NCBI GenBank assembly: GCA_039588915.1
Contig: JBDGYV010000004.1
Location: 2,632-66,631, forward strand
Direction of reading: 5' to 3'
DNA from: Gemmatimonadota bacterium
GTDB taxonomy: Bacteria; Gemmatimonadota; Gemmatimonadetes; JACCXV01; JAHWKZ01
Length of the DNA: 64,000 bases
The notes below the pieces were generated by a model. The model saw nothing but the letters and a program-made list of their open reading frames with translations. It was not told the DNA's origin and ran no database searches. Positions 1 to 63,059 of this stretch are shown one piece after another. The position numbers and the translations under genes were made by a program. Numbering within the stretch: position 1 is the first letter of the stretch; the number at the start of each line of letters is the position of its first letter.

Positions 1-559
1 GAATGGCGCGCCTCGAAAAGCCGGCTACCGCCGCTTCCGTGTGAAGTATGCCGAGGGGCAGGACGATTTCGCGATGATGGCGGAGGTGGTCGAGCGATAC
101 TTCCGCGGTTTGTTGGATCACGACGAGCCGTTGCCCGATCTGCTGTTGATCGATGGTGGGAAAGGACAGCTCAATGCCGCCCGCGGGGTGCTGGAAGAGC
201 TCGGCGCACTGCCCGATCTCGACGTCGCTGGTCTGGCGAAGCGTGAAGAAGAGATCTACCTGCCCGGACGCAAAGAGCCCGTGTGGTTACCTCGCCGGTC
301 GCGGGGACTGCAGACGATGCAGCATATTCGTAACGAGGCTCACCGGTTTGCGGTCTCGTATCACCGCAAGCTTCACAGTCGGCGCCTGATCGGAAGCGAG
401 CTCGACGACATCCCCGGAATCGGTCCCAAGCGGCGAGCCACCTTGCTGCACCACTTTCAGTCGGTCGATCGGTTACGTCACTCGCCCGCCGACGAGATCG
501 CCAAGATTCCCGGATTCTCGATCGCACTCGCCGAGCGAGTGAAGGCGGCACTTGAGTGA
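1..559 (+). CDS. uvrC: Excinuclease ABC subunit C, C-terminal part (5' end lies upstream of the window)
   Basis: The frame is open from nt 2; its translation contains a GYRRFRVK-type motif followed by the RNase-H-like endonuclease and HhH regions (DIPGIGPKRRATLLHHF). The stop at 557-559 overlaps the next start. Confidence 0.8.
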   Translation, partial: NGAPRKAGYRRFRVKYAEGQDDFAMMAEVVERYFRGLLDHDEPLPDLLLIDGGKGQLNAARGVLEELGALPDLDVAGLAKREEEIYLPGRKEPVWLPRRSRGLQTMQHIRNEAHRFAVSYHRKLHSRRLIGSELDDIPGIGPKRRATLLHHFQSVDRLRHSPADEIAKIPGFSIALAERVKAALE

Positions 560-8525: not shown

Positions 8526-9495
8526 GATCGGTCCCGCCGAGTGGCTGGCTCGCGCGCGCGAGACGCTGGCCGTTGAATCGGCGGCGATCGCCGCGCTGCA
8601 GACACGGCTCGGCCCGTCGTTTGTCGACGCGGTGGAGGCGCTGCACGCGTGTCGTGGCCGGGCGATCGTCACCGGGATTGGCAAGAGTGGCCTGGTCGGC
8701 AGGAAGATCGCCGCCACCCTCACCTCTACCGGTACGCCGGCCATTTTTGTGCATCCTGCCGAGGGTGTTCACGGCGACTCGGGTGTAGCGATGAGCGGCG
8801 ATGTCGTAGTCGCGCTATCAAAGAGCGGTGAGACCGGCGAATTGCTCGATCTGCTGGGTGTTTTCAAGCGATTCAACCTGCCGGTAATCGCGCTGGTGGG
8901 ACGTCCCGACTCGACACTCGGGCGGTATGCCGATGTGGCGCTCGACTGCTCGGTCGACCAAGAAGCCTGCCCCCATGACCTGACTCCGACCGCGTCGACC
9001 ACGGCTATGATCGCGTTTGGTGACGCGCTGGCGATGGCACTGCTTACGCGGCGCGATTTCCGGCCCGAGGAGTTTGCCCAGTTTCACCCCGGTGGGGGAC
9101 TTGGAAAGCGGCTGCTGTTGACTGTCGGCGAGGTCATGGCGGTAGGCGACGAGTGTCCCAGCGTTCCCACGAGCGCGACGATGCGCGAAGCAATCTTGGA
9201 GATGGCTCACAAGAGAGGCACCGTTCCGGTGGTGGACGACGCGCATCGCGTGGTCGGCGTGGTGACCAACGGCGACCTCATGCGGCTAATGGAGAAGACC
9301 GATCAGGTTTTTGCGATACCTGTCGAAGACGTGATGACTCGGAGTCCCCAGATCACCCGAGTGGATGCGCTAGCCGCGGCGGCGGTCAACCAGATGGAGA
9401 ACTTCGGTATTGTCGCGATGCCGGTTGTCGACGACGAACAGCGCTTGGTAGGGATCGTGCATCTCCACGATTGCATGCGGGCGGGTGTGGTTTGA
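8494..9495 (+). CDS. kdsD: Arabinose-5-phosphate isomerase (SIS + tandem CBS), KdsD/KpsF
   Basis: A SIS domain (VTGIGKSG, SKSGETGEL) is followed by two CBS domains. Overlaps the kdsC end. Confidence 0.85.
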   Translation: MRATQGKTTTEIGPAEWLARARETLAVESAAIAALQTRLGPSFVDAVEALHACRGRAIVTGIGKSGLVGRKIAATLTSTGTPAIFVHPAEGVHGDSGVAMSGDVVVALSKSGETGELLDLLGVFKRFNLPVIALVGRPDSTLGRYADVALDCSVDQEACPHDLTPTASTTAMIAFGDALAMALLTRRDFRPEEFAQFHPGGGLGKRLLLTVGEVMAVGDECPSVPTSATMREAILEMAHKRGTVPVVDDAHRVVGVVTNGDLMRLMEKTDQVFAIPVEDVMTRSPQITRVDALAAAAVNQMENFGIVAMPVVDDEQRLVGIVHLHDCMRAGVV

Positions 9496-10157
9496 CTATC
9501 GCGTTATCACGTTTCGGTTTGGTCGCTATTGCGGTGGGTCTCTTCGTTGTCGCATGTGACGAGGAAGCTCAGGTGCACACCGTCGACCCGCCGATAGGGA
9601 GGCCGGATCTACCGACGCCTGATCAAGTGGTGGAAAACGGGGAGCACCTGATCACCGAGCAAGGCGTTAAGAAGGCGCTGCTGACGGCCGAGCAGCTCTA
9701 CTTCTACAATCAGACCGGCAAGGTCTTTGGGGACACCGTTCAAGTCGAGTTCTACGACGAAACCGGTGCTTTCGTATCGCTGTTGACCGCCGAGACCGGT
9801 GAGATGGACCAATCGAGCCGCAAGATGATCGCGCGGGGCAACGTGTTCGTTCGCGGCAGAGACTCGACCATCAAGACCGAGGAGCTTCATTACGATCCCC
9901 AGGGTGACCGGATCTACAGCCAAGTCGAGACCGAGATCAACCAACGTGGCAACGTGATTCGCGGAAGCGGTGTCGAATCCGATCCCGCGTTGAAGGAGGT
10001 TAGGATCCAGGGCGGCTCGGCGGTGCTGCGATCCGAGCCGGAGCTCCGGCCCAAGTCGAACCCCACGCCGCCGGACTCGGCGGTACAGGCCGATCCTGCT
10101 CGTCCCCGCAGCCCCGCTACCGACGGCCCGGCGGCGGCCCCCGGTGACTCCAGCTAG
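9492..10157 (+). CDS. lptC: LptC-like LPS export lipoprotein
   Basis: TTG start overlaps the kdsD stop. There is a lipoprotein signal (..LFVVAC), an OstA/LptC-like beta-jellyroll region, and a Pro-rich C-terminal tail. Position is between kdsD and lptA. Confidence 0.55.
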   Translation: MTIALSRFGLVAIAVGLFVVACDEEAQVHTVDPPIGRPDLPTPDQVVENGEHLITEQGVKKALLTAEQLYFYNQTGKVFGDTVQVEFYDETGAFVSLLTAETGEMDQSSRKMIARGNVFVRGRDSTIKTEELHYDPQGDRIYSQVETEINQRGNVIRGSGVESDPALKEVRIQGGSAVLRSEPELRPKSNPTPPDSAVQADPARPRSPATDGPAAAPGDSS

Positions 10158-24940: not shown

Positions 24941-24974
24941 ACGTCGTTAACGGTGAGGATAGAATGACGTAACG

Positions 24975-25215
24975 CTCTGATCGTTTCGAGGTGCCTGTCG
25001 GCGACGATGGTCGACGACGGGAGAATAGGGAATGCGGTGTGAATCCGCAGCGGCCCCGCCACTGTGAACGGCCCGCCCGACCGGGGCGGCCGAAGTCAGG
25101 AGACCTGCCTCGAAGCGTTCTCTCCGTTGTTATCCTTCGCGGGAGGGATGCGGCGAGAGGTCGGCTGGCCCGGTCTCCACCGCCTGTCCGCTTCCGCGGG
25201 CAGGCTTTTTTTTTG
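24975..25215 (+). ncRNA. Cobalamin (B12) riboswitch with intrinsic-terminator expression platform
   Basis: The core AAUAGGGAAUGCGGUGUGAAUCCGCAGCGGCCCCGCCACUGUGAACGG and the B12 box GAAGUCAGGAGACCUGCC are both present. The terminator hairpin follows, and the element sits immediately upstream of btuF-like transporter genes. Confidence 0.9.
25183..25214 (+). terminator. Rho-independent terminator (riboswitch OFF-state hairpin + T10)
   Basis: Hairpin cctgtccgc-ttcc-gcgggcagg followed by ten T residues. Confidence 0.8.
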
Positions 25216-39396: not shown

Positions 39397-39473
39397 GCGC
39401 CCGTAGCTCAGCTGGATAGAGCGACGGCCTCCGGAGCCGTAGGTCAGAGGTTCGAATCCTCTCGGGCGCACCA
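39397..39473 (+). tRNA. tRNA-Arg (anticodon CCG)
   Basis: Cloverleaf: acceptor gcgcccg/cgggcgc, D-arm gctcagctggatagagc, anticodon arm acggc-cuCCGga-gccgt, T-arm agagg-ttcgaat-cctct, discriminator A and encoded CCA. Confidence 0.85.
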
Positions 39474-41706: not shown

Positions 41707-41742
41707 GGCGTTGGGCCAGACAGCTTCTGAGGATTCAAAAAA

Positions 41743-41777
41743 AGAGGGGTCGCTGTTAGCGACCCCTCTTCTGTTTA
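41743..41777. terminator. Bidirectional intrinsic terminator (A-tract / agaggggtcgc-tgtt-gcgacccctct / T-rich)
   Basis: An 11-bp perfect stem is flanked by aaaaaa on one side and tctgttt on the other. Confidence 0.7.
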
Positions 41778-41940
41778 CGCGGGAACTCAATCGGTCGGGG
41801 GTTCACCTTCCTTTCATTGAGCCAGACCGAGTGCGACACTGTGTAAGGGTTTCCCTTGCGCTGTCTAAATGATCAGGGTTTTCACCTCAAGCACATCAAG
41901 GTGATCGCCGTCGTCGAAGGCTAGATTGCTTGCTCCGAGG

Positions 41941-44589
41941 ATGATCGCACAGCCAGCCACTGACGCTGATCTCCCGTCGGGGACGGTCACGTTCCTTTTC
42001 ACCGACATCGAGGGCAGCACTCGTTTGTGGGAGAAGGACGCCGCCCACATGAAGGCGAACCTCGAGCGCCACGACCAGATCATCCTCGACACCGTTGATG
42101 CCCACGGTGGCCACGTTTTCAATACGGTGGGTGACGGATTTTGGACGGTGTTTGAGCGGCCGCCACAAGCAGTGGAAGCGGCGCTGACCATTCACCGTGA
42201 TCTCGATCGGGAAGCCGAACGAGCCACGAATCCGCTGCGCGTTCGGGTAGCGATACACACCGGAGAGGCAGACCAACGAGAGGGAGTTTACTCCGGGGCT
42301 ACGGTGAGCCGAGTCGCCCGTCTTACCCCCGTGGCCCATGGTGGCCAGACGATCCTGTCCCGGACCGCGTGGGATCTGGTGCGCAACGCGCTGCCCGACG
42401 AAATGACGCTGCGCGACCTCGGCTACCACCGCCTCCCCGATCTCGAGTCTCCGGAACAGATCTACCAGCTTGAGCATCCCGGGCTCCGGTCGGAGTTCCC
42501 GCCGTTGAGATCGCTGGACACGATGCCCCACAACCTGCCCCTCCAACTGACAAGCTTCGTGGGTCGGGAAGCGGAGATCGAGGAAGTTCGGAAACTGTTG
42601 GCAGCCCATCGCGTCGTCACGCTTTCAGGAATCGGAGGTCAAGGCAAGACTCGCCTCGCGCTGCAATTGGCGGCTCAAGTGTTGAAGATGTTCCCGGACG
42701 GTGTCTGGTTCGTCGAACTCGCCAGACTTACCGATCCAGCGCGGGTTCCACAAGCTGTCGCGAACGCTCTCGGCGTACGTGAGGTGCCGGGACGTGACGT
42801 GGCCGACATGCTGATGCAGCACTTGTGTTCACAAACGGCTCTGATCGTGCTAGACAACTGCGAACATTTGATCGACGCGAGCGCGGTGTGGGTCGAGACG
42901 GCGTTGCAGACAGCGCCACGGTTGAAAGTGCTGGCAACAAGTCGGGAGATGCTGGGAATCCCCGGGGAAGTGGTATTCGTGGTTCCGTCGTTAGCTGCGC
43001 CGGCCATCGGAATCGATCCGAAGGACACGTCTCCATCGGACCTGACTGCCTATGAAGCGGTCCAGTTGTTTGTCGAACGCGCTGCACTTGTAAAACCAGG
43101 TTTCGCTATTGATGGGAGCGCTCAATCGGTGGGTCAGATCTGTGCGCGGCTGGATGGAATCCCCCATGCGATCGAGCTGGCCGCGGCGCGTGTTGCGGTT
43201 CTGTCGCCGGATCAGATCGCGGCGCGTCTCGACGACTGTTTTCAGCTTCTGGGAGTCGGCAGTCGTACGGCGTCGCCTCGTCATCAGACGCTTCGGGCGG
43301 TGATCGATTGGAGTCATGACTTACTAGAAGAGCAGGAACAGAGGTTACTGCGACGGCTGGCGGTCTTCGTTGGCGGTTGGACGCTGGAGGCCGCTGAAGA
43401 GATCTGGGGCGAGTCGGGGACCCTCGACCTTCTATCGCGGCTCGTCGACAAGTCTCTCGTCGTCGCCGAGCCGTCGGACGCGACAGGTATGCGCTATCGG
43501 CTACTGGAAACGACTCGACGCTACGCGCGCGAAAAGCTCGCTGCAGCGGGCGAGGGTGAAGCGATCGAGAGACGACACCGGGACTGGACGCTCGCGCTCG
43601 TCGAGTCGGTCGATCTTGGATTCCCGGGTTCGGACGTCGCGCTGAGACTGGAGTCACTGGAGACCGAGAACGACAACGTGCGCGCGGCGTTGGAGTGGAG
43701 CCTGGCGCGAAACGAATCTGAGCCGGCGCTTTGGATCGTTGCCTCGATGAAGCACTTCTGGAAGTCGAACGGTTTGTTGACTGAGGGGATCGAGTGGTGC
43801 AAGAGGGCGCTTGCCGCCGGCTCGGAGTTGAGCATAGCGAGGAGCCAGGCGCTGAGCGTTCTCAGCGCGCTTTCGTTTTTTCACGGCGATGTCGACCGCG
43901 CCCGTTCGGCGGCCGAGGAAGCGCTGACGATCGCGCGAGAGGTAGACGACACGCGGAGCCTGATGCTCGCGCTTTCAGCAGTCGCGAGGAACGCCTCGCT
44001 CAGTGAGAGCGACTACGAGATTGGAAGCGTCGCCGCCGACGAGGGATTGCGGTTGGCTCGGGAGCTCGGAAATCGGGATTCGGAACTGGTCCTCCTCGTG
44101 AATCAGGGGGACGCCGATCGATACTGGGGACACCTGAAACGAGCGGAAGAGATGTACGAAGAGGCGCGAGCTCTGTGTCGCGCTTCGGAGAATCGGTATC
44201 GAGAAGTGGAGCTGCTGTTCAACTTGGGTCAGACAGCGCTCGCCATGGGGAACGCGGATGAAGCCGACCGACGCTATCGACAATTGGAGCGGCTCACTAC
44301 CGAGTTCCACCATCTAGCTGGCCGTTTGCAGGCGCTCATCGGCATGGCGGAAGTCTATGCGACCAGGGGTGCGCACGATCGGGCGGCGCGACTGCTGGGC
44401 GCCAGCGAGGCGGGACTAGAAACCCAGGGCCGAACGCTCGATCCCCCCGATCACCTGCTCTACGATCGCTCCGTTGCTGCGGCGCGAGAGACCCTTGGCG
44501 AACGAGCCTTCGCGGCCGCCTGGGCAGAGGGGGGCGAATTGACGCTCGACGAGGCGGTAGCCGAGGCGTTTGGGGACGCGCCTACCTAG
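41941..44589 (+). CDS. Multidomain signalling protein: class III adenylate/guanylate cyclase domain + NB-ARC/AAA-type ATPase + TPR repeats
   Basis: N-terminal VTFLFTDIEGSTRLWE..FNTVGDGFW cyclase core. P-loop GIGGQGKTRLA and the hhhhD box LIVLDNCEH. C-terminal TPR-like repeats. TTG 41926 is an alternative start. Confidence 0.7.
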   Translation: MIAQPATDADLPSGTVTFLFTDIEGSTRLWEKDAAHMKANLERHDQIILDTVDAHGGHVFNTVGDGFWTVFERPPQAVEAALTIHRDLDREAERATNPLRVRVAIHTGEADQREGVYSGATVSRVARLTPVAHGGQTILSRTAWDLVRNALPDEMTLRDLGYHRLPDLESPEQIYQLEHPGLRSEFPPLRSLDTMPHNLPLQLTSFVGREAEIEEVRKLLAAHRVVTLSGIGGQGKTRLALQLAAQVLKMFPDGVWFVELARLTDPARVPQAVANALGVREVPGRDVADMLMQHLCSQTALIVLDNCEHLIDASAVWVETALQTAPRLKVLATSREMLGIPGEVVFVVPSLAAPAIGIDPKDTSPSDLTAYEAVQLFVERAALVKPGFAIDGSAQSVGQICARLDGIPHAIELAAARVAVLSPDQIAARLDDCFQLLGVGSRTASPRHQTLRAVIDWSHDLLEEQEQRLLRRLAVFVGGWTLEAAEEIWGESGTLDLLSRLVDKSLVVAEPSDATGMRYRLLETTRRYAREKLAAAGEGEAIERRHRDWTLALVESVDLGFPGSDVALRLESLETENDNVRAALEWSLARNESEPALWIVASMKHFWKSNGLLTEGIEWCKRALAAGSELSIARSQALSVLSALSFFHGDVDRARSAAEEALTIAREVDDTRSLMLALSAVARNASLSESDYEIGSVAADEGLRLARELGNRDSELVLLVNQGDADRYWGHLKRAEEMYEEARALCRASENRYREVELLFNLGQTALAMGNADEADRRYRQLERLTTEFHHLAGRLQALIGMAEVYATRGAHDRAARLLGASEAGLETQGRTLDPPDHLLYDRSVAAARETLGERAFAAAWAEGGELTLDEAVAEAFGDAPT

Positions 44590-44614: not shown

Positions 44615-45064
44615 TTAGTAGTCGTCGTCGTGATCGTCCTCGTGGTCGTCGTGGTGCTTCTTGTCGTAGTGCTTCTTGAACTCGACTAGGATCGCTTCAC
44701 CGGCCTCATCGGACGGATTCTCCGGCAAGTGTACGACCGCGTCCGTCCAGAACGGCACGTTGGCTTCAGTCAGTGCATCAGCCGATGTCCCGTCGGGGGA
44801 TTGCATCAGCCAAGTTTGAGTCGTCAGCGAAATGACCACGCCTGCCGGGTGCTCATGCATGACCGACTTCTCACCCGGTCCGTAATGAACCCGCAGCACG
44901 CGAGCCTGGTCATTCTCGAACACTAGCTTGTAGTGGTCCGGATCGACCGCGGTCGGATCTTGCGCCCACGTTGCCGAGGCCGATAGGGCTACGAGCAGGA
45001 TCGAAAAGAGCGTTCGTACAAGCACAGCGTACCTCCGTCTTGGGACCCAGGGTTGAACCGTCAT
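44615..45064 (-). CDS. Secreted cupin-like protein with C-terminal His/Asp-rich tail (HYDKKHHDDHEDDHDDDY)
   Basis: Signal peptide, a small beta-barrel-like core (VLRVHYGPGEKSVMHEHPAGVV) and an acidic His-rich tail suggesting metal binding. The start was taken at the internal ATG 45064. Confidence 0.5.
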   Translation of the reverse strand: MTVQPWVPRRRYAVLVRTLFSILLVALSASATWAQDPTAVDPDHYKLVFENDQARVLRVHYGPGEKSVMHEHPAGVVISLTTQTWLMQSPDGTSADALTEANVPFWTDAVVHLPENPSDEAGEAILVEFKKHYDKKHHDDHEDDHDDDY

Positions 45065-46573: not shown

Positions 46574-48886
46574 ATGATCAGGCTAGCGCTCATCGCCGTA
46601 ATGTCCCTCGGACCCCCTCCGGGTGACGGTTCCGTTCACGGAACGGTCCAGTCCGATCGTTACGAAACGGTCGCCGGGGTGCGGATCGAGATCCCGGCTG
46701 AGGGCGTAGTGGCGTGGTCGGACTCGACCGGGGCCTACCAGATCGAGGGCCTCGAGCCGGGCGAGCACAAGATCCGGTTCTCGCAGTTCGGGTATCACCC
46801 GCTCGAGCTTCAGGTCACGGTGCCGCATGATGGCTCGCTGAGCCTGGACGTTCGGTTGCGAACCCAGTTTATCGTTTTTCCCGAGATCTCGGCTCTCGCA
46901 TACGCGTCGCTCGATCCCGGCGAGGTGTTCGAGGCCAACGGATTGCCGGAGATCGGTTCGAGGGTGTTGGCGGGCGAGGTGCTTTGGTCCGACCCGTTGG
47001 CCCGCCAACCGGACGTCTTCGAGATCCTGTCCATCATTCCCGGCATCGACATGGCGGAGGAGTCGCCGACGCAGCTTCACGTGCGTGGCGGCTCGGCTGA
47101 CCAAAACCTCGTCCTGTTGGACGGCGCACCGGTTTACAATGCCTACCATACGAGCGGGATCATGTCCGCGATCAGCCCCGACGCGGTGTCGGAGGTGGCG
47201 ATTCACACCGGTGTGTTCCCGGCCCGGTACGGCGGCCGGCTGTCGAGCGTGATCGACGTATCAACACCAGAACCCGGCGAGTCCGGGCTGCGGGTCCGAG
47301 GCGGTGCGGGGCTGGCCGACCTGAGGATGACGGTCGACGCGCCGATGCCCGGTGCCGCCGGGGGAGTACTGATCGGCGGTCGTCGAACGAGGTACGACCT
47401 GTTCCGACGCGGCCCGTTCCTCGACAAGAACCGGACCAGCGGGTTTGACGATTTGCTGGGCAAGGTCTCGATCGACCTACCGGGAGGCCGGTTCGACGTC
47501 GTCTCGCTCACTTCGGACAACTGGCTCTTTTCGAACGTCATTGGAGATGAGGCCAGCGTCGCGACCGAGGAACAGCGGGCGCTGAGGAACAGCGTGCTGT
47601 GGTCGGCATCAACGAACGCCGTTGCGTGGAGTCGATCGTCCGACGCCACGTCCGACATCCGGTTTCAGATGTGGCGCGCCACAACAAACTCGGACGTCCA
47701 CTGGGGGGCGAGTTCCGAGCGCTACCGTGCCGTCAATGCGCTCAAGCACTGGGGTGCGTCGGGTGACGTGTCTTGGGTGCGACCCGAGACCGTGGGACGA
47801 GCTGGTTTCACGGTAGAAGCCCTGTCCTCCAAGTACGTGGCCGACCCCTTGACAAGCGACACAGTGCTGAGCCTAGCTGACGCAGACCCCGTTCTGGATC
47901 TGCGATCGAGCCAGAAGATCGTTTCCACGTACTTCGAGCACCGCTGGATCGCGCGCGATCACTGGATCGTCAATAACGGGTTGCGAGCTGTGTTTGTCGA
48001 TGGTCGCAGCGTCGCGCTTGAGCCGCGTGTCTCGGTTCACTACCGACCCGATGAAAGGTTGACGCTCTCCGGTGGGTACGCACGAGTTCATCAGTACGTG
48101 CAATCGCTCCGCAACGAGGAGTCGCTTTTAAACGCTGCTTTTGGCGCCGAGCCGTTGGTCACCGCGGACGCCCGAGAAGTGCCGGTCGGCCGGTCGGACC
48201 AGCTGACTGCGGCGTTGGAAGCACGGTTGTCGGAGCGTCTTCTCTTGACAGTCGACGGACACCTTCGGTGGCTCGATGACCTCGTTCTTGTGGCTCCCAC
48301 TACCGCCCAGCCGTTCGCGATCACCGGGTTTGAGCGTGGAAAGGGACGGGCGATAGGCACCGGGGCGGCTCTGTTCTATCGGGGGGATCGAGTCGATGCC
48401 GAGGCGATCGTCGAATGGAGTACCATTCGCAGACAGTATGGAAACGTCACCTATCATCCTGGATTCGAGCGTAGGCGATCGGTGATCACGGCTGCATCCT
48501 ACCGGCTTACGCCTCAGACCAAGGTCAGGACCGCTTTCCAGGCGGTTGCTGGCCGACCCACCAGTTCGGTCCAGGAGGGGTTTGACTGGGAATCATTTGA
48601 TCGGCTGAGCGGCGAGGTGGAGTTCAGCGGAACACCACTGCGGCTCTCCGACACGGTCAACGATGAGCGACTGCCGGCTTACGTCCGGTGGGACATCGGG
48701 ATCCGCAAGGAATGGAATCCCTCGCTGCTCGGTCTCTCTGGCTCGGTCATGACCTATCTGGACGTAACCAACGTGCTGGGACATGAGAACGTGGTTGGCT
48801 ACGGGGTCAATCCGTCGGGATTCGAGCGCCGGGACCTGCGTCTCCTCCCGGCATCGACCGCTTTCGGTCTCGAGTGGAGCTTCTGA
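46574..48886 (+). CDS. TonB-dependent receptor with carboxypeptidase-regulatory-like N-domain
   Basis: CarbopepD_reg (GTVQSDRYETVAGVRIEI..YQIEGLEPGEHKIRF), a plug domain, and a 22-strand-type barrel ending in the EWSF C-terminal aromatic signature. Confidence 0.75.
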   Translation: MIRLALIAVMSLGPPPGDGSVHGTVQSDRYETVAGVRIEIPAEGVVAWSDSTGAYQIEGLEPGEHKIRFSQFGYHPLELQVTVPHDGSLSLDVRLRTQFIVFPEISALAYASLDPGEVFEANGLPEIGSRVLAGEVLWSDPLARQPDVFEILSIIPGIDMAEESPTQLHVRGGSADQNLVLLDGAPVYNAYHTSGIMSAISPDAVSEVAIHTGVFPARYGGRLSSVIDVSTPEPGESGLRVRGGAGLADLRMTVDAPMPGAAGGVLIGGRRTRYDLFRRGPFLDKNRTSGFDDLLGKVSIDLPGGRFDVVSLTSDNWLFSNVIGDEASVATEEQRALRNSVLWSASTNAVAWSRSSDATSDIRFQMWRATTNSDVHWGASSERYRAVNALKHWGASGDVSWVRPETVGRAGFTVEALSSKYVADPLTSDTVLSLADADPVLDLRSSQKIVSTYFEHRWIARDHWIVNNGLRAVFVDGRSVALEPRVSVHYRPDERLTLSGGYARVHQYVQSLRNEESLLNAAFGAEPLVTADAREVPVGRSDQLTAALEARLSERLLLTVDGHLRWLDDLVLVAPTTAQPFAITGFERGKGRAIGTGAALFYRGDRVDAEAIVEWSTIRRQYGNVTYHPGFERRRSVITAASYRLTPQTKVRTAFQAVAGRPTSSVQEGFDWESFDRLSGEVEFSGTPLRLSDTVNDERLPAYVRWDIGIRKEWNPSLLGLSGSVMTYLDVTNVLGHENVVGYGVNPSGFERRDLRLLPASTAFGLEWSF

Positions 48887-48938
48887 TCCTCGGCCGAGGC
48901 CTTAGCCGCCGCAAAGTCTTCCCCCTCACGCCACATAT

Positions 48939-48950
48939 CTGACGCGTCAG
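48939..48950. promoter_or_regulatory. Perfect 12-bp palindrome CTGACGCGTCAG 34 nt upstream of the ECF sigma gene
   Basis: Seen directly in the sequence. It is followed by gcgttccatctgtgaacc, so it may be an operator or promoter element. Confidence 0.25.
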
Positions 48951-48983
48951 GCGTTCCATCTGTGAACCGGGTCTCCTGGGAGA

Positions 48984-49523
48984 GTGAGTGAGCGCCGGGA
49001 CGTGAATCGGAATGAACCATTCGAGGCCGCTTTTGGCGACGTCTTTGAGGCGCGGTTCCAGTCGTTGTTCCGCTATGTGAATCGTCTTTGCGGGGATTCA
49101 GCGGCGGCCGCGGACATCGCTCAGGAGTCCTTTGTGAGGTTGTACCAGCGAGGTGAACTACCCGATGACCCAAGAGCATGGCTGGTGACGGTGTCCAATA
49201 ACTTGTTCCGCGATGCGCACCGACGCACAGGTAGGCGGCAGGAGCTACTGGAAGCCAAAGCAGATCGCCTCTACGATGACGGGTCGGCTTCTGATCCGGC
49301 GGAGCAGTTGGAGGCTCGTGAGCGGAGACAGCGGGTCCGACAGGCTCTCGCGAAGTTGCCGTTGCGCGATCAGCAGGCGTTGCTGCTTCGTCACGAAGGC
49401 TACACCTATCGCGAGATCGCCCGGGCTCTCGACTACGGGGAGGCCGGGGTCGGAAAACTGATCAGTCGCGCCACACGCGCTTTTCAGCGCGCGTATGAGG
49501 ACTTGGTAGATGCATCTGCATGA
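48984..49523 (+). CDS. ECF-type RNA polymerase sigma factor (sigma-70 region 2 + region 4)
   Basis: Region 2 (FQSLFRYVNRLCGD..AADIAQESFVRLY) and a region-4 HTH (YREIARALDYGEAGVGKLISRA). Confidence 0.85.
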   Translation: MSERRDVNRNEPFEAAFGDVFEARFQSLFRYVNRLCGDSAAAADIAQESFVRLYQRGELPDDPRAWLVTVSNNLFRDAHRRTGRRQELLEAKADRLYDDGSASDPAEQLEARERRQRVRQALAKLPLRDQQALLLRHEGYTYREIARALDYGEAGVGKLISRATRAFQRAYEDLVDASA

Positions 49524-50238
49524 CGCCGAACTACAGGGGCTGCTCGACGAGGAGCCCAGCGTTAACGAGAACGAGAGCGTTCGCGCGCACGTCGCGGGTT
49601 GTGAGCAGTGCTCGGCGAGGATGGAGGACATGAAGCTTGCGTTTCGCGAGACCGGGCAACTATTGACAGTGCTCGACGAGTCCCCGCCGGCGATATCTGC
49701 CGATCAGCTGATCGAGATGGCGCAACGCCGTCACATTCCTGCCCGGAGAGCGCCTCGGGGAGTCGCATGGGCAGCCTCGGTGGCGGGTTTGGTCGTCGCG
49801 ACGATCGTTGCCGCCGCCATTCCGGGATCGCCGGTCCGTGCGATCGTGGAGAATCTGCTCCAAGATCTAGGACCTGAATCGCCCCAACCCACGGCTCCGG
49901 TGGAACCGTGGGAAGCTGGCGTCGCAATAACACCCGACGGAGCGATCGAGATCGTGTTCGATGCCGCTCAGTCGAGTGGTTCGATCGAGGTCCAGTTGGT
50001 CGAGATCGATGTCGCCCGAATCGAGGTTCGCGGTGACTCGGTTGGTTTCGCGGTAGGGGATCGTTCGATCCGAGTCGAGAACCAAGACGCGACCGCCAGT
50101 TATCGGATCACGCTCCCAGAGAACCTGTCGCAAACCGTAATCCGGGTCGGCACGCGCACCGTCTTCGCCAAGCAGGGCTCCCGGGTCTTGCAGAACGAGT
50201 TCGACCAGGACGGAGAGCTCTACCGGCTCGTGTTTTAG
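49510..50238 (+). CDS. Putative anti-sigma factor (zinc-finger type)
   Basis: Overlaps the sigma gene. N-terminal H-x3-C-x2-C (HVAGCEQC) as in ZAS/RsrA-like anti-sigma domains. A TM segment (AASVAGLVVATIVAAAI) and a periplasmic C-terminal domain follow. Confidence 0.5.
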   Translation: MHLHDAELQGLLDEEPSVNENESVRAHVAGCEQCSARMEDMKLAFRETGQLLTVLDESPPAISADQLIEMAQRRHIPARRAPRGVAWAASVAGLVVATIVAAAIPGSPVRAIVENLLQDLGPESPQPTAPVEPWEAGVAITPDGAIEIVFDAAQSSGSIEVQLVEIDVARIEVRGDSVGFAVGDRSIRVENQDATASYRITLPENLSQTVIRVGTRTVFAKQGSRVLQNEFDQDGELYRLVF

Positions 50239-60797: not shown

Positions 60798-63059
60798 CTA
60801 CGAGATCGGCTTCTCGGGAAGCTCGACCGTAAACGTCCACAGTCCAGAGTTGTAGTCGGTCGCATAGAGCGTGTCGCCGACCGGCGACCACTCGTCCCCG
60901 AACATCGGGAACACACCCCACACGCTGGGAGCGAACGGTAGTTTGGCGTCCTCAGGCCCGGCCGACGGTAAAAAGTAGGCGATCTCACGACCCTGAGCGT
61001 AGAGGTCGCCACGCAACTCGCCACTGACGTCGACAACCCGGATTCCACCCTGGTAATAGCCGATGTACAAGACGTCATCGTTGACCCAGAAGTTGTGCGC
61101 ACCCGCTTCGGGAACCTCGTACTTGGCGACGTACTTCGGCCTGGTCGGGTCGCTAACGTCTACGACGTGCACCGGTCCACGTGGATCGTTCCCCGACCCC
61201 GGGATGCTAGGGGTCGTGCCCGCGAGGCTGAAGTCCTCATCGCCCACGAACACGTAGTTGCGATGCCGGATCGCCGAGTGGGTCGGACCACCCGGATAAA
61301 AGATTCGGCTCACCTGCGTCGGTGCCTCAGGGGTTCCGCCACGACCGCCACCGCCGACGTCGAGGATCACAAGCCCGTCGTTCATGTACGACACGTACGC
61401 CATACCATCCTGCACCCAAATGTCGTGCAATGAGCGACCGACGACGGGGAGGCCCCACCGACCGACTTCGCGCGGACGGGTAGGATCCGAGAGATCGATG
61501 ATGTGCAGATCGTTGGTGCCGTCGTTGACCGCGTAGACGAGATGCCCGATCCAGAACACGTTGTGCACTCCGGCCGTCAGGGTCTCGGTGTACTCGCTCA
61601 CCAACTCCGGCTGAGCTGGATCCTCGAGTGAGAACACCAGGATCCCGTTGCGTCGGTTGGCTGCCCCTTCACGCGTGGCGACCAGCCACTGGCCGTCTTC
61701 AGACACCTTGACGTCGTTTATGACGCGCGCATCAAACTCCTGCTCGTTCGTCAACACGGGGTTGGCTGGGTCCGAGACGTCGAATGTGAGCAGACGATTG
61801 GCCTGGTGCGTGCCCACGTACACGTACGAGTTTTGTGGCCACAGATCGGAGGTGTACGTTTCAACGTTCTTGCCGTGTCCGTTCATGTGGATACGGCCGG
61901 ATATCCCCCTGGCAATGGCTTCGATTGACGCGGTCGCGACCCGGTCGCCCAATACTGCCACCACCGTGTACCGGCCTGGATGTTCGGCGACGAACGAACC
62001 GTCCGGGTACACCTGAGCGCCGGCCTGGGCTACTGACCAAACCGGGCGGGCGTGATCTTCGTCCATCGCGAGTTGGACGACGTCGCCGGTACGGATCGCG
62101 CCGCTTGGCACGTCTTCGATCGACAACGGATCCCCGGACTCGGCCACCACCGAGATCGTGTACTCGGTCCTCGTGTCGTCAGCTTTGACAGTGATGGTGG
62201 CTTGACCCGGTGATTGCGCGACGAGCGTGTGAGCGTCGACTCCGATCACATCAGAAGCGCTGGATGTGATTTCGACATCGGGATCCAGCACCCAGCGATG
62301 GATCGAGTTCAGCGCGTCGATCTCGAGCGGCACCCGACTGCCGGTCACAAGTCGCGACGGCACGTTGGTGTAGACGCTGATCGACTCGATCTTCGGACTC
62401 GAGATCGCGACTGCGGCCGTGCCAATGGCATTGTTGACCACTGCAACGACCACTCTGTCTCCCGCGTTCACGCCGACGAAGTCTCCCGATTGGTTGATCG
62501 TCCCGCCCAACGAGAACCATTCGACATCGCTATCCGCGATCTCAACACCCGCCTCGTCGTAGGCGCGAGCTACAAACCGCTGTGTTTGTTCCGAGTCGAG
62601 GGTGATGTTGCTTGGTACGACCTCGACCCGCGAGATGCCGGGTGCGGCACGGAACATGTCAAAGCTCGGCTCGAGTTGTGTGTCTTGACCGACCGGTACA
62701 AGCGCAATCGGTATCACGAAGCGGTTATCTTCGCCGAGGCTGAACCAGAGGCCAACGAACGCATCGCCATCGCGCGTACCAACGAAACGGCCGGGACCGA
62801 ACGGCGTATCGAACTCCATCTGCGCCCGATCGTCAGTCACCTGGCTGTCCGTGACCTGCACGAACGTTCCTGGACTTTCGGGCGTCACGATCTTGTCGGC
62901 GTCGATCTTGAACGGCATCGGCGGTGCGTTTATCCCCTGACCGACCAGCTGATAAGGGGTGTAGCCTGCAGGGATCGTCGGTGCATCTTGGGCCATGGCT
63001 TGACTCGTGATTGTCGACCCGGCAGTTACCGCTATCAGGGCGAGTGTATAACGGAGCAT
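60798..63059 (-). CDS. Secreted LVIVD-repeat beta-propeller protein with N-terminal Big_2-like Ig domains
   Basis: Signal peptide. Ig-like domains. Repeated LVIVD-type strands (GLVILDVGG, GIRVVDVSG, LHIIDLSDPTRP, VHVVDVSDPTRP, LLTFDVSDPANP). Confidence 0.6.
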   Translation of the reverse strand: MLRYTLALIAVTAGSTITSQAMAQDAPTIPAGYTPYQLVGQGINAPPMPFKIDADKIVTPESPGTFVQVTDSQVTDDRAQMEFDTPFGPGRFVGTRDGDAFVGLWFSLGEDNRFVIPIALVPVGQDTQLEPSFDMFRAAPGISRVEVVPSNITLDSEQTQRFVARAYDEAGVEIADSDVEWFSLGGTINQSGDFVGVNAGDRVVVAVVNNAIGTAAVAISSPKIESISVYTNVPSRLVTGSRVPLEIDALNSIHRWVLDPDVEITSSASDVIGVDAHTLVAQSPGQATITVKADDTRTEYTISVVAESGDPLSIEDVPSGAIRTGDVVQLAMDEDHARPVWSVAQAGAQVYPDGSFVAEHPGRYTVVAVLGDRVATASIEAIARGISGRIHMNGHGKNVETYTSDLWPQNSYVYVGTHQANRLLTFDVSDPANPVLTNEQEFDARVINDVKVSEDGQWLVATREGAANRRNGILVFSLEDPAQPELVSEYTETLTAGVHNVFWIGHLVYAVNDGTNDLHIIDLSDPTRPREVGRWGLPVVGRSLHDIWVQDGMAYVSYMNDGLVILDVGGGGRGGTPEAPTQVSRIFYPGGPTHSAIRHRNYVFVGDEDFSLAGTTPSIPGSGNDPRGPVHVVDVSDPTRPKYVAKYEVPEAGAHNFWVNDDVLYIGYYQGGIRVVDVSGELRGDLYAQGREIAYFLPSAGPEDAKLPFAPSVWGVFPMFGDEWSPVGDTLYATDYNSGLWTFTVELPEKPIS

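Follow-up and report, generated by a model that had tools for sequence, protein, structure and literature searches.

Locus and genomic neighbourhood

Positions 41941-44589 of the window (the whole 64-kb stretch of DNA analysed) encode a signalling protein in which a nucleotidyl cyclase domain is joined to an NB-ARC-type STAND ATPase and a TPR sensor. The gene is monocistronic, and it lies between a hairpin and a convergent gene:

41742-41770, plus strand: intrinsic-terminator-like hairpin, found by RNA folding, that ends the upstream gene for an M49-like peptidase
41941-44589, plus strand: complete coding sequence of the cyclase-NB-ARC-TPR protein, 882 amino acids plus stop (ATG at 41941, stop at 44587-44589)
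44615-45025, minus strand: convergent gene for a cupin-like protein of 136 amino acids, identified by PDB sequence search

An earlier note on this DNA had the cyclase gene standing alone after a terminator, and both parts of that description are borne out, since the downstream gene is convergent at 25 bp and the hairpin has a GC-rich 13-bp stem of -24.8 kcal/mol (z -5.4 versus shuffles), followed by UCUGUUU. As predicted from its sequence, the hairpin would separate the cyclase gene from upstream transcription. A simple consensus scan missed this hairpin, which was revealed by folding; the consensus scan for a sigma-70-like promoter found none.

There is modest support for the description of the convergent neighbour as cupin-like, in that its product matched 2fqp, a small cupin-like chain (E 1.4e-4), and a ‘Cupin type-2’ chain (E 0.006) in the PDB sequence search, but had no Pfam match at E ≤ 1. 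Judged by eye, the product has an N-terminal hydrophobic segment resembling a signal peptide as well as a His/Asp-rich C-terminal tail, and it is probably secreted. Of the 5 distinct gene orders examined at orthologous loci, 4 have the cupin-like gene next to the cyclase gene; the convergent gene encodes 130-147 amino acids in orthologous loci, and has shrunk to 46 amino acids in both loci that carry P0003. This gene is not co-transcribed with the cyclase gene and probably lies outside the cyclase system.

A further neighbour encodes an FkbM methyltransferase, and the flanks consist of housekeeping genes (carAB, HU, metK, ahcY, rpoN and LPS genes). No cNMP-binding receptor, phosphodiesterase, second cyclase or second NOD gene is encoded in the 64-kb window, no defence gene lies near the cyclase gene, and none of the neighbours encodes a CNBD, TIR or TM effector.

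The start codon

The ATG at 41941 lines up with the ATG of two orthologues among the orthologous loci that we compared, and codons 10-36, the 27 codons 5' of M37, are conserved in frame in orthologues, with a dN/dS of 0.075. The shared ATG and the conserved codons before M37 confirm 41941 as the correct start, and the same upstream conservation rules out a cyclase domain truncated at M37. The gene calls of 8 of 10 database orthologues, P0001 (the identical entry) among them, begin at an internal Met and thereby lose the first catalytic Asp. In public gene calls, the M37 start conceals the cyclase domain, and the label of every such orthologue entry that names its source is just ‘predicted ATPase’.

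Domain architecture and structural model

The protein is composed of three modules, and both ATPase motifs are intact:

41974-42486, plus strand: class III nucleotidyl cyclase domain, residues ~12-182 (Pfam PF00211, phmmer, Foldseek)
42556-43545, plus strand: STAND module of P-loop NTPase, helical domain and winged-helix domain, residues ~206-535 (Pfam, model, Foldseek)
42628-42651, plus strand: Walker A motif GIGGQGKT, residues 230-237
42841-42867, plus strand: Walker B motif LIVLDNCEH, residues 301-309
43555-44571, plus strand: C-terminal, all-helical TPR sensor array, residues ~539-877 (Pfam TPR_MalT and TPR_12, model)

This is the domain order, at the coordinates, that had been proposed from the letters of the sequence, and it is recovered both by Pfam domain annotation and by an AlphaFold2 model (single chain, mean pLDDT 89). 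Guanylate_cyc (PF00211) matches residues 13-111 at 36.2 bits (cutoff 21.9), covering only positions 6-112 of the 183 in the profile; the two motifs quoted earlier, FTDIEGST and GDGF, are present at residues 20-27 and 64-67. NB-ARC matches residues 210-337 at 27.5 bits (cutoff 23.5), AAA_22 is also matched, and all 66 family members compared share G230, G233, G235, K236, T237, D305 and E308. The winged-helix domain WHD_ROQ1 matches residues 460-531, the precomputed annotation of the identical protein gives HTH_77, and TPR_MalT/TPR_12 match residues 613-822. By profile match and predicted fold, we place the protein in the class III cyclase fold and among the NB-ARC/AP-ATPase-type STAND NTPases.

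In the model, an alpha/beta NTPase is followed at 464-535 by three helices and a beta-hairpin wing (helices 464-503, beta-hairpin 508-520), and then by paired, TPR-like helices up to residue 877, with no HTH after the TPR array. Likewise, Pfam reports no GerE or other HTH at E ≤ 0.1, which upholds the earlier statement that a C-terminal LuxR/HTH output is absent.

The N-terminal domain of the model superposes on Ma1120 of M. avium with a TM of 0.92 and an rmsd of 1.7 Å (Foldseek), and the PDB phmmer search gives E 1e-21 at 31-33% identity. Ma1120 (PDB 4wp3, 4wp9, 5d15) is the closest solved cyclase domain, although its crystallised constructs of 171-210 residues lack a STAND or TPR module. The remainder of the model matches the STAND-TPR protein 6mfv (E 8.8e-13, 697 aligned columns), Apaf-1 and the plant NLR ZAR1 (Foldseek). 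Residues ~200-880 find their best structural match in 6mfv (16% identity), which likewise has a NOD, a winged-helix domain and a TPR sensor; for the cyclase domain of the model, other PDB entries were matched instead. The 6mfv protein is the archaeal PH0952 of Pyrococcus horikoshii, reportedly presented by Lisa and colleagues in 2019 as the structural template for how TPRs autoinhibit the NOD. PDB sequence matches to the TPR region are the TPRs of LGN/Pins.

The best NCBIfam matches are HaaT (E 2.3e-17), AfsR (E 1.3e-11, residues 193-781) and FxSxx_TPR (E 3.3e-11), all far below their equivalog cutoffs. The Streptomyces AfsR/SARP-NB-ARC-TPR regulators and the HaaT/FxSxx TPR proteins share the core of an NB-ARC-type NOD and TPRs, but AfsR carries an N-terminal SARP DNA-binding effector where the window protein has a cyclase. 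An AfsR-like transcription factor was rejected as an identity for the protein, which has no SARP or HTH domain.

The family and its orthologues

The architecture is common: more than 8000 database proteins match it, and Chloroflexota, Actinomycetota and Armatimonadota are among the phyla with full-length relatives. Within this cyclase-NB-ARC-TPR family, the lack of an HTH is the norm and not an anomaly. To our knowledge no HTH-less member has been characterised, and literature searches returned no studies of HTH-less cyclase-STAND-TPR proteins.

Among the matches listed in whole-protein contig scans, relatives were mostly of 33-52% identity, which crowd these scans because the DNCEHLID motif is common, and the only close relative listed was L004, a Gemmatimonadales MAG with 78% identity. 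Close orthologues were therefore collected one by one, via the contigs that encode each database protein. Downstream gene order is the same in orthologues of 77-92% identity, and thus vertical inheritance fits better than a mobile defence island. The gene, from a Gemmatimonadales host, is an ordinary, vertically inherited member of its family with a modest twist, the altered nucleotide pocket described below.

Rv0386, reportedly still an AC with a GC side activity in spite of its non-canonical Gln/Asn pair (Castro et al., 2005), differs in these substrate residues from the window protein, which has Asn/Val. Together with Rv1358 and Rv2488c of M. tuberculosis, Rv0386 forms a group that, like the window protein, opens with a class III cyclase and continues with a P-loop ATPase of STAND type and helical/TPR repeats. 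These are class IIIc adenylyl cyclase-ATPase-TPR-LuxR HTH proteins whose ATPase is termed MalT-like (bioRxiv 10.1101/2024.03.06.583649); in contrast to this group, which ends in a LuxR-type HTH, the window protein has no HTH and its ATPase scores as NB-ARC.

The cyclase active site

Four catalytic residues of the cyclase domain are kept and four substrate contacts are altered:

42004-42006, plus strand: D22, metal-binding Asp in FTDIEGST, kept
42121-42123, plus strand: N61, at the adenine-specifying Lys position, non-canonical
42133-42135, plus strand: D65, metal-binding Asp in GDGF, kept
42244-42246, plus strand: R102, phosphate-binding Arg, kept
42286-42288, plus strand: V116, at the adenine-specifying Asp position, non-canonical
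42307-42309, plus strand: S123, at the transition-state Asn position, non-canonical
42319-42321, plus strand: R127, transition-state Arg, kept
42436-42438, plus strand: P166, at the presumed gamma-phosphate Lys/Arg position, non-canonical

D22 and D65 align with the family-invariant Asp residues and with the corresponding pair of Ma1120, and R102 and R127 are invariant. By contrast, the family has K in 88% at position 61 (K101 in Ma1120), D in 97% at position 116 (D157 in Ma1120) and N in 97% at position 123. Thus Ma1120 keeps the adenine-specifying pair that is N61 and V116 in the window protein, while both proteins lack the canonical transition-state Asn and keep the Arg. N61/V116 corresponds to neither the AC pair (Lys/Asp) nor the GC pair (Glu/Cys-Ser-Gly). 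Of 64 relatives, 62 (97%) have K or R at position 166, where the window protein has P and most orthologues have H; the position is identified with the gamma-phosphate Lys, for which K612 of CaGC served as the comparison (PMC7384201), by spacing and by this 97% K/R conservation only.

The hexad D-D-K-D-N-R is the consensus at the catalytic positions, found in 90 of 120 full-length relatives and in 108 of 120 domain-only relatives, and the ancestor was therefore a canonical AC-type cyclase fused to a STAND switch. Throughout the orthologue clade, other residues (N61, V/G116) stand in for the adenine-specifying Lys and Asp, and no other N/V-type cyclase appears among the 120 closest domains in a domain-only homologue search. 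S123 and P166 mark the sublineage of the window gene. Position 123 is N in 7 of 10 database orthologues, S in one and D in one, and it is also N in the L004 orthologue; at position 166, close orthologues carry H or P. The ancestor of the clade still had N123 and H166. D22, D65, R102 and R127 are kept at every readable position in the ~11 orthologues, which share ~80% identity.

We know of no characterised enzyme in which K61N, D116V, N123S and K/R166P are combined. Asn occurs at the Lys position in Rv1900c (Asn/His), which is active. Two of the four substitutions, at 116 and 123, have precedent because Ma1120 has Ala at the Asn position and its D157 mutants are still active. Ma1120, with a natural Ala (Ala164) in place of the transition-state Asn, is an active AC with a Vmax of 166 nmol/min/mg, and the D157G, D157T and D157C mutations reduce activity only 3-5 fold, while the single mutation K101E removes more than 90% of AC activity at pH 7.5 (PMC4215837).

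The earlier note proposed a cAMP/cGMP-producing signal integrator, and this proposal stands in part: it is plausible by homology, and the protein has both metal-binding Asp residues and the transition-state Arg, but the Asn is Ser, the purine-specifying pair is replaced and Lys/Arg166 is Pro. Similarly, missing catalytic Asp or Asn/Arg residues had been named as the mark of a degenerate cyclase, and half of this pattern is found, with the Asp pair and the Arg in place and Ser instead of Asn. Since both purine-specifying residues, the Asn and Lys/Arg166 are all altered, an AC or GC identity cannot be assigned to the window protein from sequence. With four altered substrate contacts, its cyclase may be weak, re-specified or inactive.

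Selection and constraint on the cyclase domain

The cyclase domain is under purifying selection and is not decaying. Among orthologues, the dN/dS of the cyclase is 0.165, compared to 0.14 in the WHD and TPR regions and 0.089 in the NOD, and amino-acid identity is 81% in the cyclase compared to 86% in the NOD. Departures from family-conserved columns amount to 12% in the cyclase and in the NOD, compared to 22-24% in the WHD and TPR regions, and clade-defining substitutions are similar in the two domains (13.7% in the cyclase, 12.7% in the NOD). Of the 10 departures in the cyclase domain, 3 hit the six classic catalytic positions (hypergeometric p = 0.023), an enrichment that speaks for change directed at the pocket. 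The variation at positions 123 and 166 among close orthologues looks like relaxed constraint on the pocket.

A proposed STAND-gated cyclase and the alternatives

From the established biochemistry of STAND proteins and of class III cyclases, we infer the following mechanism. At rest, the NB-ARC module would be closed, with ADP bound, and held so by the TPR array and the winged-helix domain. Binding of a ligand or partner protein to the TPR sensor would lead to ADP/ATP exchange and oligomerisation, upon which the N-terminal cyclase domains could pair as the head-to-tail dimers that a class III active site requires, and the paired domains would make a cyclic nucleotide. In the Gemmatimonadales lineage the nucleotide pocket has been remodelled (N61 and V116, here with S123 and P166 as well), with the two-metal centre and Arg102/Arg127 kept, and a slow or specificity-shifted enzyme would therefore be the most likely outcome. 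We consider it about an even call that the protein is such a cyclase: cytoplasmic, STAND-gated, of class III, slow or with relaxed or shifted specificity, and not a canonical adenylate cyclase.

The main rival is a pseudo-cyclase, in which the domain makes no cNMP and serves dimerisation or nucleotide binding within the STAND scaffold, the output being protein-protein interaction via the oligomer and the TPR array; we regard this as a possible but distinctly less probable reading. The clade-wide loss of the base-specifying residues, followed in the sublineage by N123 to S and H166 to P, would fit stepwise erosion, and the slightly faster evolution of the cyclase relative to the NOD and the failure to find a cNMP receptor nearby, within the window, point the same way. 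However, the domain does not show a general loss of family-conserved residues, and the metal-binding Asp pair, R102 and R127 are all kept, which at ~80% identity among so few orthologues is weak evidence either way. At positions 61 and 166 there is at most the precedent of Rv1900c and Rv0386. The changes at 116 and 123 are tolerated in active Ma1120 (PMC4215837).

The division between kept residues (D22, D65, R102) and lost ones (K61, D116, N123, K166) also fits the C1/C2 split of mammalian adenylyl cyclase, a division of labour reportedly described by Tesmer and colleagues in 1999. The window protein might accordingly be a half-site subunit, with the C1-like residues kept (the two metal-binding Asp and the Arg for the beta-phosphate), most C2-like residues lost, and activity dependent on mixed oligomers in which a canonical cyclase-STAND paralogue supplies the other half; several family paralogues can share one contig in other taxa (P0015, P0016 and P0045, whose longest contigs have the same length of 65,724 bp). 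We find this improbable, because R127, a C2-type residue, is retained, no second cyclase or NOD gene was found in the window, no complementary Asp-less partner was identified, and the pattern may be coincidental, given the N123 and H166 of the clade ancestor.

An anti-phage or abortive-infection STAND sensor of the Avs or Pycsar kind, in which the TPRs detect a phage protein and a cyclic nucleotide signals or poisons the cell, seems more doubtful still. Repeat-sensor STAND NTPases do include defence proteins, and pocket residues that are not of purine type leave room for an unusual product, but the suggestion of a role in phage defence in the earlier note finds no support. PADLOC matched no Avs, NLR-type or other STAND defence model, and its matches to PycC, the cyclase of Pycsar, were weak and at domain level only (at best E 1.4e-5 and 22 bits). 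PycC shares with the window protein a class III-like cyclase fold and two catalytic Asp residues but is not fused to a STAND-TPR module; it has an adjacent gene for a cNMP-activated effector, a Pycsar requirement that the window does not provide next to the cyclase gene, and the pocket residues fit none of the three PycC specificity sets (PMC11224242). The housekeeping flanks and the conserved downstream order also argue against a defence locus. Thus a Pycsar cyclase was rejected on the low scores (10-22 bits) and the missing adjacent effector, and an Avs-type defence protein on the absence of an Avs match and of a defence-island context.

Implications for STAND-fused cyclases

What is new here is the altered active site, as the architecture itself is not rare. 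In metagenomes, the cyclase-NB-ARC-TPR arrangement ranks among the most abundant of the bacterial STAND architectures. Since a class III cyclase functions only as a dimer, proteins of this kind offer the simplest setting in which oligomerisation of an NLR-like switch could itself form the active site of an enzyme, and the window gene leaves this picture as it is. For annotation, the lesson is that gene calls from an internal Met drop the first catalytic Asp. A natural variant with a remodelled pocket could reveal which residues STAND-fused cyclases truly need. It is unlikely, in our estimate, that the Gemmatimonadales clade has been re-specified, either for a product other than cAMP or cGMP (for instance a pyrimidine cNMP) outside known defence operons or as a C1-like half-site subunit that acts with a canonical paralogue; if true, either version would be a new coupling of an NLR-like switch to second-messenger synthesis.

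Domain architecture and start of the STAND gene

The gene at 41941-44589 encodes a class III cyclase domain fused to a P-loop module, a winged-helix domain (WHD) and TPR repeats.

Features of the STAND gene and its flanks
41742-41770 (+): terminator-like hairpin, 13-bp GC-rich stem followed by UCUGUUU (-24.8 kcal/mol, z -5.4, by folding)
41941-44589 (+): STAND gene, ATG at 41941 to stop at 44587-44589, 882 aa
residues 13-111 (+): class III cyclase domain (Pfam PF00211, 36 bits, profile positions up to 112 of 183 only)
residues about 205-337 (+): NB-ARC/AAA_22 P-loop module (Pfam)
residues 460-531 (+): winged-helix domain (Pfam)
residues 613-822 (+): TPR_MalT/TPR_12 repeats (Pfam)
44615-45025 (-): cupin-like gene, product probably secreted, weakly similar to PDB 2fqp and a Cupin type-2 chain

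A Pfam search of the 882-aa protein found no LuxR/GerE or other output HTH, and NCBIfam similarity, to LipJ-type cyclases and the NB-ARC-TPR proteins HaaT, AfsR and FxSxx, was sub-threshold only. The AlphaFold2 model (alignment of 66 relatives) has a mean pLDDT of 89; in Foldseek comparison with the PDB, its N-terminal domain superimposes on Ma1120, an adenylyl cyclase of M. avium (TM 0.92, rmsd 1.7 Å), and the rest resembles the STAND-TPR protein 6mfv (E 9e-13), Apaf-1 and a plant NLR. Pfam and the model thus bear out the architecture read in an earlier note, a cyclase, STAND ATPase and TPR protein lacking a LuxR/HTH. Judged by motifs and fold, the protein is a bona fide STAND NTPase; its fold and metal site place it in the class III cyclase superfamily, but not as a canonical adenylyl or guanylyl cyclase.

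The hairpin closes the upstream M49-like peptidase gene and the downstream gene is convergent, 25 bp distant; the STAND gene is therefore monocistronic, standing alone after a terminator as previously described. Several antisense ORFs, between 100 and 237 aa long, also overlap it within 41941-44589 (e.g. 41896-42609, -), and are most likely artefacts, given the 62% GC of the DNA and the well-supported sense CDS.

Eight of the ten database orthologues (P0001-P0003, P0005-P0007, P0009 and P0010) are annotated from an internal Met (M37, window 42049), at the cost of 36 residues, the first catalytic Asp among them. The PF00211 match is absent from all eight entries, even the 100%-identical P0001, and five carry only the JGI name 'predicted ATPase'. 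M37 is ruled out as the true start, since four independent orthologous loci keep in frame the 27 codons that run from D10 to just before M37 (DLPSGTVTFLFTDIEGSTRLWE), the dN/dS of these codons is 0.075, and ATG 41941 lines up with the ATG of two orthologues. Thus, the first metal-binding Asp belongs to the protein, and a mis-called start recurs in public annotations of its orthologues.

Substitutions in the substrate pocket

We mapped the catalytic positions by HMMER and MAFFT alignment to 240 relatives and to Ma1120, in which the reference residues K101, D157, A164 and R168 were set experimentally (PMC4215837).

Catalytic positions in the family, the target and its orthologue clade
Metal-binding Asp 1: family D; target D22; clade D wherever the N-terminus is readable
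Metal-binding Asp 2: family D; target D65; clade all D
Conserved Arg, RxxxHxG strand: family R; target R102; clade all R
Transition-state Arg: family R; target R127; clade all R
Adenine-specifying Lys: family K (81-88%); target N61; clade all N
Adenine-specifying Asp: family D (97%); target V116; database orthologues all V, G in the Gemmatimonadales MAG orthologue (L004)
Transition-state Asn: family N (97%); target S123; clade mostly N, S in P0001 and P0002, D in P0009
Presumed gamma-phosphate Lys/Arg: family K or R in 62 of 64; target P166; clade mostly H, P in the query and P0002

The metal-binding pair and R127, which the earlier note's reading of an active cyclase called for, are kept (D22, D65), but the Asn is S123 and the Lys/Asp pair is N61/V116. 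The family consensus is the hexad D-D-K-D-N-R (90 of the best 120 full-length and 108 of the best 120 domain-only relatives); among the relatives listed (120 of each kind), the N61/V116 pair occurs only in ten Gemmatimonadales orthologues. Since the change is clade-wide and departs from this consensus, the clade ancestor appears to have lost purine-specific recognition, and the target's sublineage to have lost two further substrate contacts. Position 166 lies 39 residues past R127, and in CaGC the gamma-phosphate is bound by K612, 35 residues past R577 (PMC7384201); the spacing and the family's K/R conservation suggest that 166 is the equivalent position. Non-canonical pockets are also seen in a handful of distant family members (patterns DEETHR and DDDGHR), one of them with a guanylate-cyclase-like Glu/Thr pair, so pocket remodelling recurs within the cyclase-STAND family.

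Across six orthologous genes, dN/dS is 0.165 for the cyclase domain, 0.089 for the nucleotide-binding oligomerisation module (NOD), with the WHD and TPR regions at 0.14. The query departs from family columns conserved at ≥80% at 12.3% in the cyclase, 12.0% in the NOD and 22-24% in the WHD/TPR regions; for clade-defining substitutions the cyclase stands at 13.7%, against 12.7% for the NOD. Of the ten cyclase-domain departures, three hit one of the six classic catalytic positions (p = 0.023). As a whole, the cyclase domain is not decaying; variation at positions 123 and 166 among close orthologues looks like relaxed constraint.

Ma1120, which is active, has a natural Ala at the Asn position, and restoring Asn cuts its activity; the mutations D157G/T/C cost it only 3-5 fold, and K101E >90% at pH 7.5 (PMC4215837). 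Ala164 and the tolerance at D157 thus provide a precedent for two of the four target substitutions, and to our knowledge the four-way combination has none. Rv1900c, whose Lys position carries Asn, and Rv0386, with Gln/Asn at the substrate positions, are both active enzymes of relaxed specificity.

Relatives and known systems

A word-indexed protein search returned at least 8000 relatives at E ≤ 1e-5. The best 120 of these (E ≤ 1e-205, about 850-1150 aa) nearly all combine PF00211, a P-loop domain (NB-ARC, AAA_22 or AAA_16) and TPR domains, many under the JGI label 'predicted ATPase/class 3 adenylate cyclase'. Relatives occupy at least 590 loci in GTDB species representatives. Among the matches listed, full-length relatives come from Chloroflexota, Actinomycetota (including Mycobacterium), Armatimonadota, Bacillota, Ignavibacteria, Planctomycetota and Proteobacteria, and the closest genome match is a Gemmatimonadales MAG (78% identity). 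This shared domain set across phyla indicates that absence of an HTH is the norm for the family.

In working, the target is closest to mycobacterial Rv0386, Rv1358 and Rv2488c, which consist of cyclase, MalT-type ATPase, TPR and LuxR domains (bioRxiv 10.1101/2024.03.06.583649). However, a C-terminal HTH defines that group and is lacking here, and the target ATPase is of the NB-ARC/AfsR rather than the MalT type. We rejected an AfsR-type regulator because the protein lacks a SARP or HTH domain.

Genomic neighbourhood

The window is ordinary chromosome, carrying queG, an XerC/D-like recombinase, kdsB, pyrG, kdsA, lptC/A/B, rpoN, hpf, hprK, PTS genes, pgi, metK, ahcY, a cobalamin-riboswitch-controlled uptake operon, carAB, HU and a tRNA-Arg gene. 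The STAND gene is followed by the cupin-like gene, an FkbM methyltransferase, a TonB-dependent receptor, an ECF sigma/anti-sigma pair and glycosyltransferases; in orthologues of 77-92% identity these downstream neighbours are mostly kept and the upstream side is variable. No defence gene, cNMP-binding gene, second cyclase or second NOD was found within the 64-kb window. The context accords with a signalling gene passed on vertically rather than with a mobile defence island.

The cupin-like protein has no Pfam family and a strongly His/Asp-rich C-terminal tail (KKHHDDHEDDHDDDY); its gene is convergent to the STAND gene in four of five distinct orthologous gene orders, and has shrunk to 46 aa in loci carrying P0003.

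Other features of the window and of orthologous loci
24972-25126 (+): cobalamin riboswitch (Rfam RF00174, 91 bits) preceding a periplasmic binding protein, ABC transporter and TonB-dependent receptors, which look like a B12 uptake operon
39397-39473 (+): tRNA-Arg(CCG), directly 3' of the HU gene
46574-50238 (+): TonB-dependent receptor with CarboxypepD_reg N-terminal domain, ECF sigma factor and putative zf-HC2 anti-sigma factor, resembling a trans-envelope signalling cassette; most orthologous loci have these genes after the STAND gene as well
60798-63059 (-): 753-aa LVIVD-repeat protein adjoining a Kdo/WaaP-family kinase and a methyltransferase
L002 (locus carrying P0004) 9233-9613 (+): truncated cyclase-like fragment, 126-aa ORF

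The interval between HU/tRNA and the STAND gene (here up to 41706) holds the M49-like peptidase in the window, an AraC regulator and alpha/beta hydrolase (with or without the peptidase) elsewhere, and trehalose genes in a third type, which suggests a variable tRNA-adjacent segment. The L002 fragment, just 3' of the 80%-identical P0004, reads ILFTGIVGST, with Gly for the first metal Asp, and its homology gives out some 70 residues in; probably the remnant of a decayed paralogue, it is absent from the window.

Proposed mechanism and alternatives

Sequence anatomy, selection pattern and genomic context are observed; for catalysis and gating we propose a scheme. By analogy with STAND proteins at large and the solved 6mfv structure, the TPR array and WHD would hold the NOD closed and ADP-bound; a ligand or partner protein on the TPRs would trigger nucleotide exchange and oligomerisation, pushing the N-terminal cyclase domains into head-to-tail dimers. 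Class III cyclases form an active site only as such dimers, and the paired domains would then make cyclic nucleotide, the altered pocket being expected to give low turnover, or else relaxed or shifted specificity. We give this STAND-gated cyclase an even chance. For the cNMP-producing signal integrator suggested earlier, architecture and metal site fit, but the substrate pocket is non-canonical at N61, V116, S123 and P166.

With the same four substitutions, a catalytically dead cyclase domain retained as a dimerisation or nucleotide-binding module is possible, if doubtful. The kept D22, D65 and R102 form a C1-type set and the lost K61, D116, N123 and K166 are C2-type, as in a 'C1-like' half-site subunit dependent on a canonical paralogue; R127 is nevertheless kept and the window offers no second cyclase or NOD, making such a subunit a long shot. 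An anti-phage role, also raised earlier, gains weak PycC matches but lacks a partner effector or defence gene in the 64-kb window, whose context is housekeeping; we rejected both Pycsar and Avs assignments on these grounds and consider the role very unlikely.

It is improbable that NLR-like control here acts on a cyclase with a re-specified product, or on a half-site enzyme that works as a heteromer. The target belongs to a known and abundant kind of protein, and its remodelled active site is modestly interesting.
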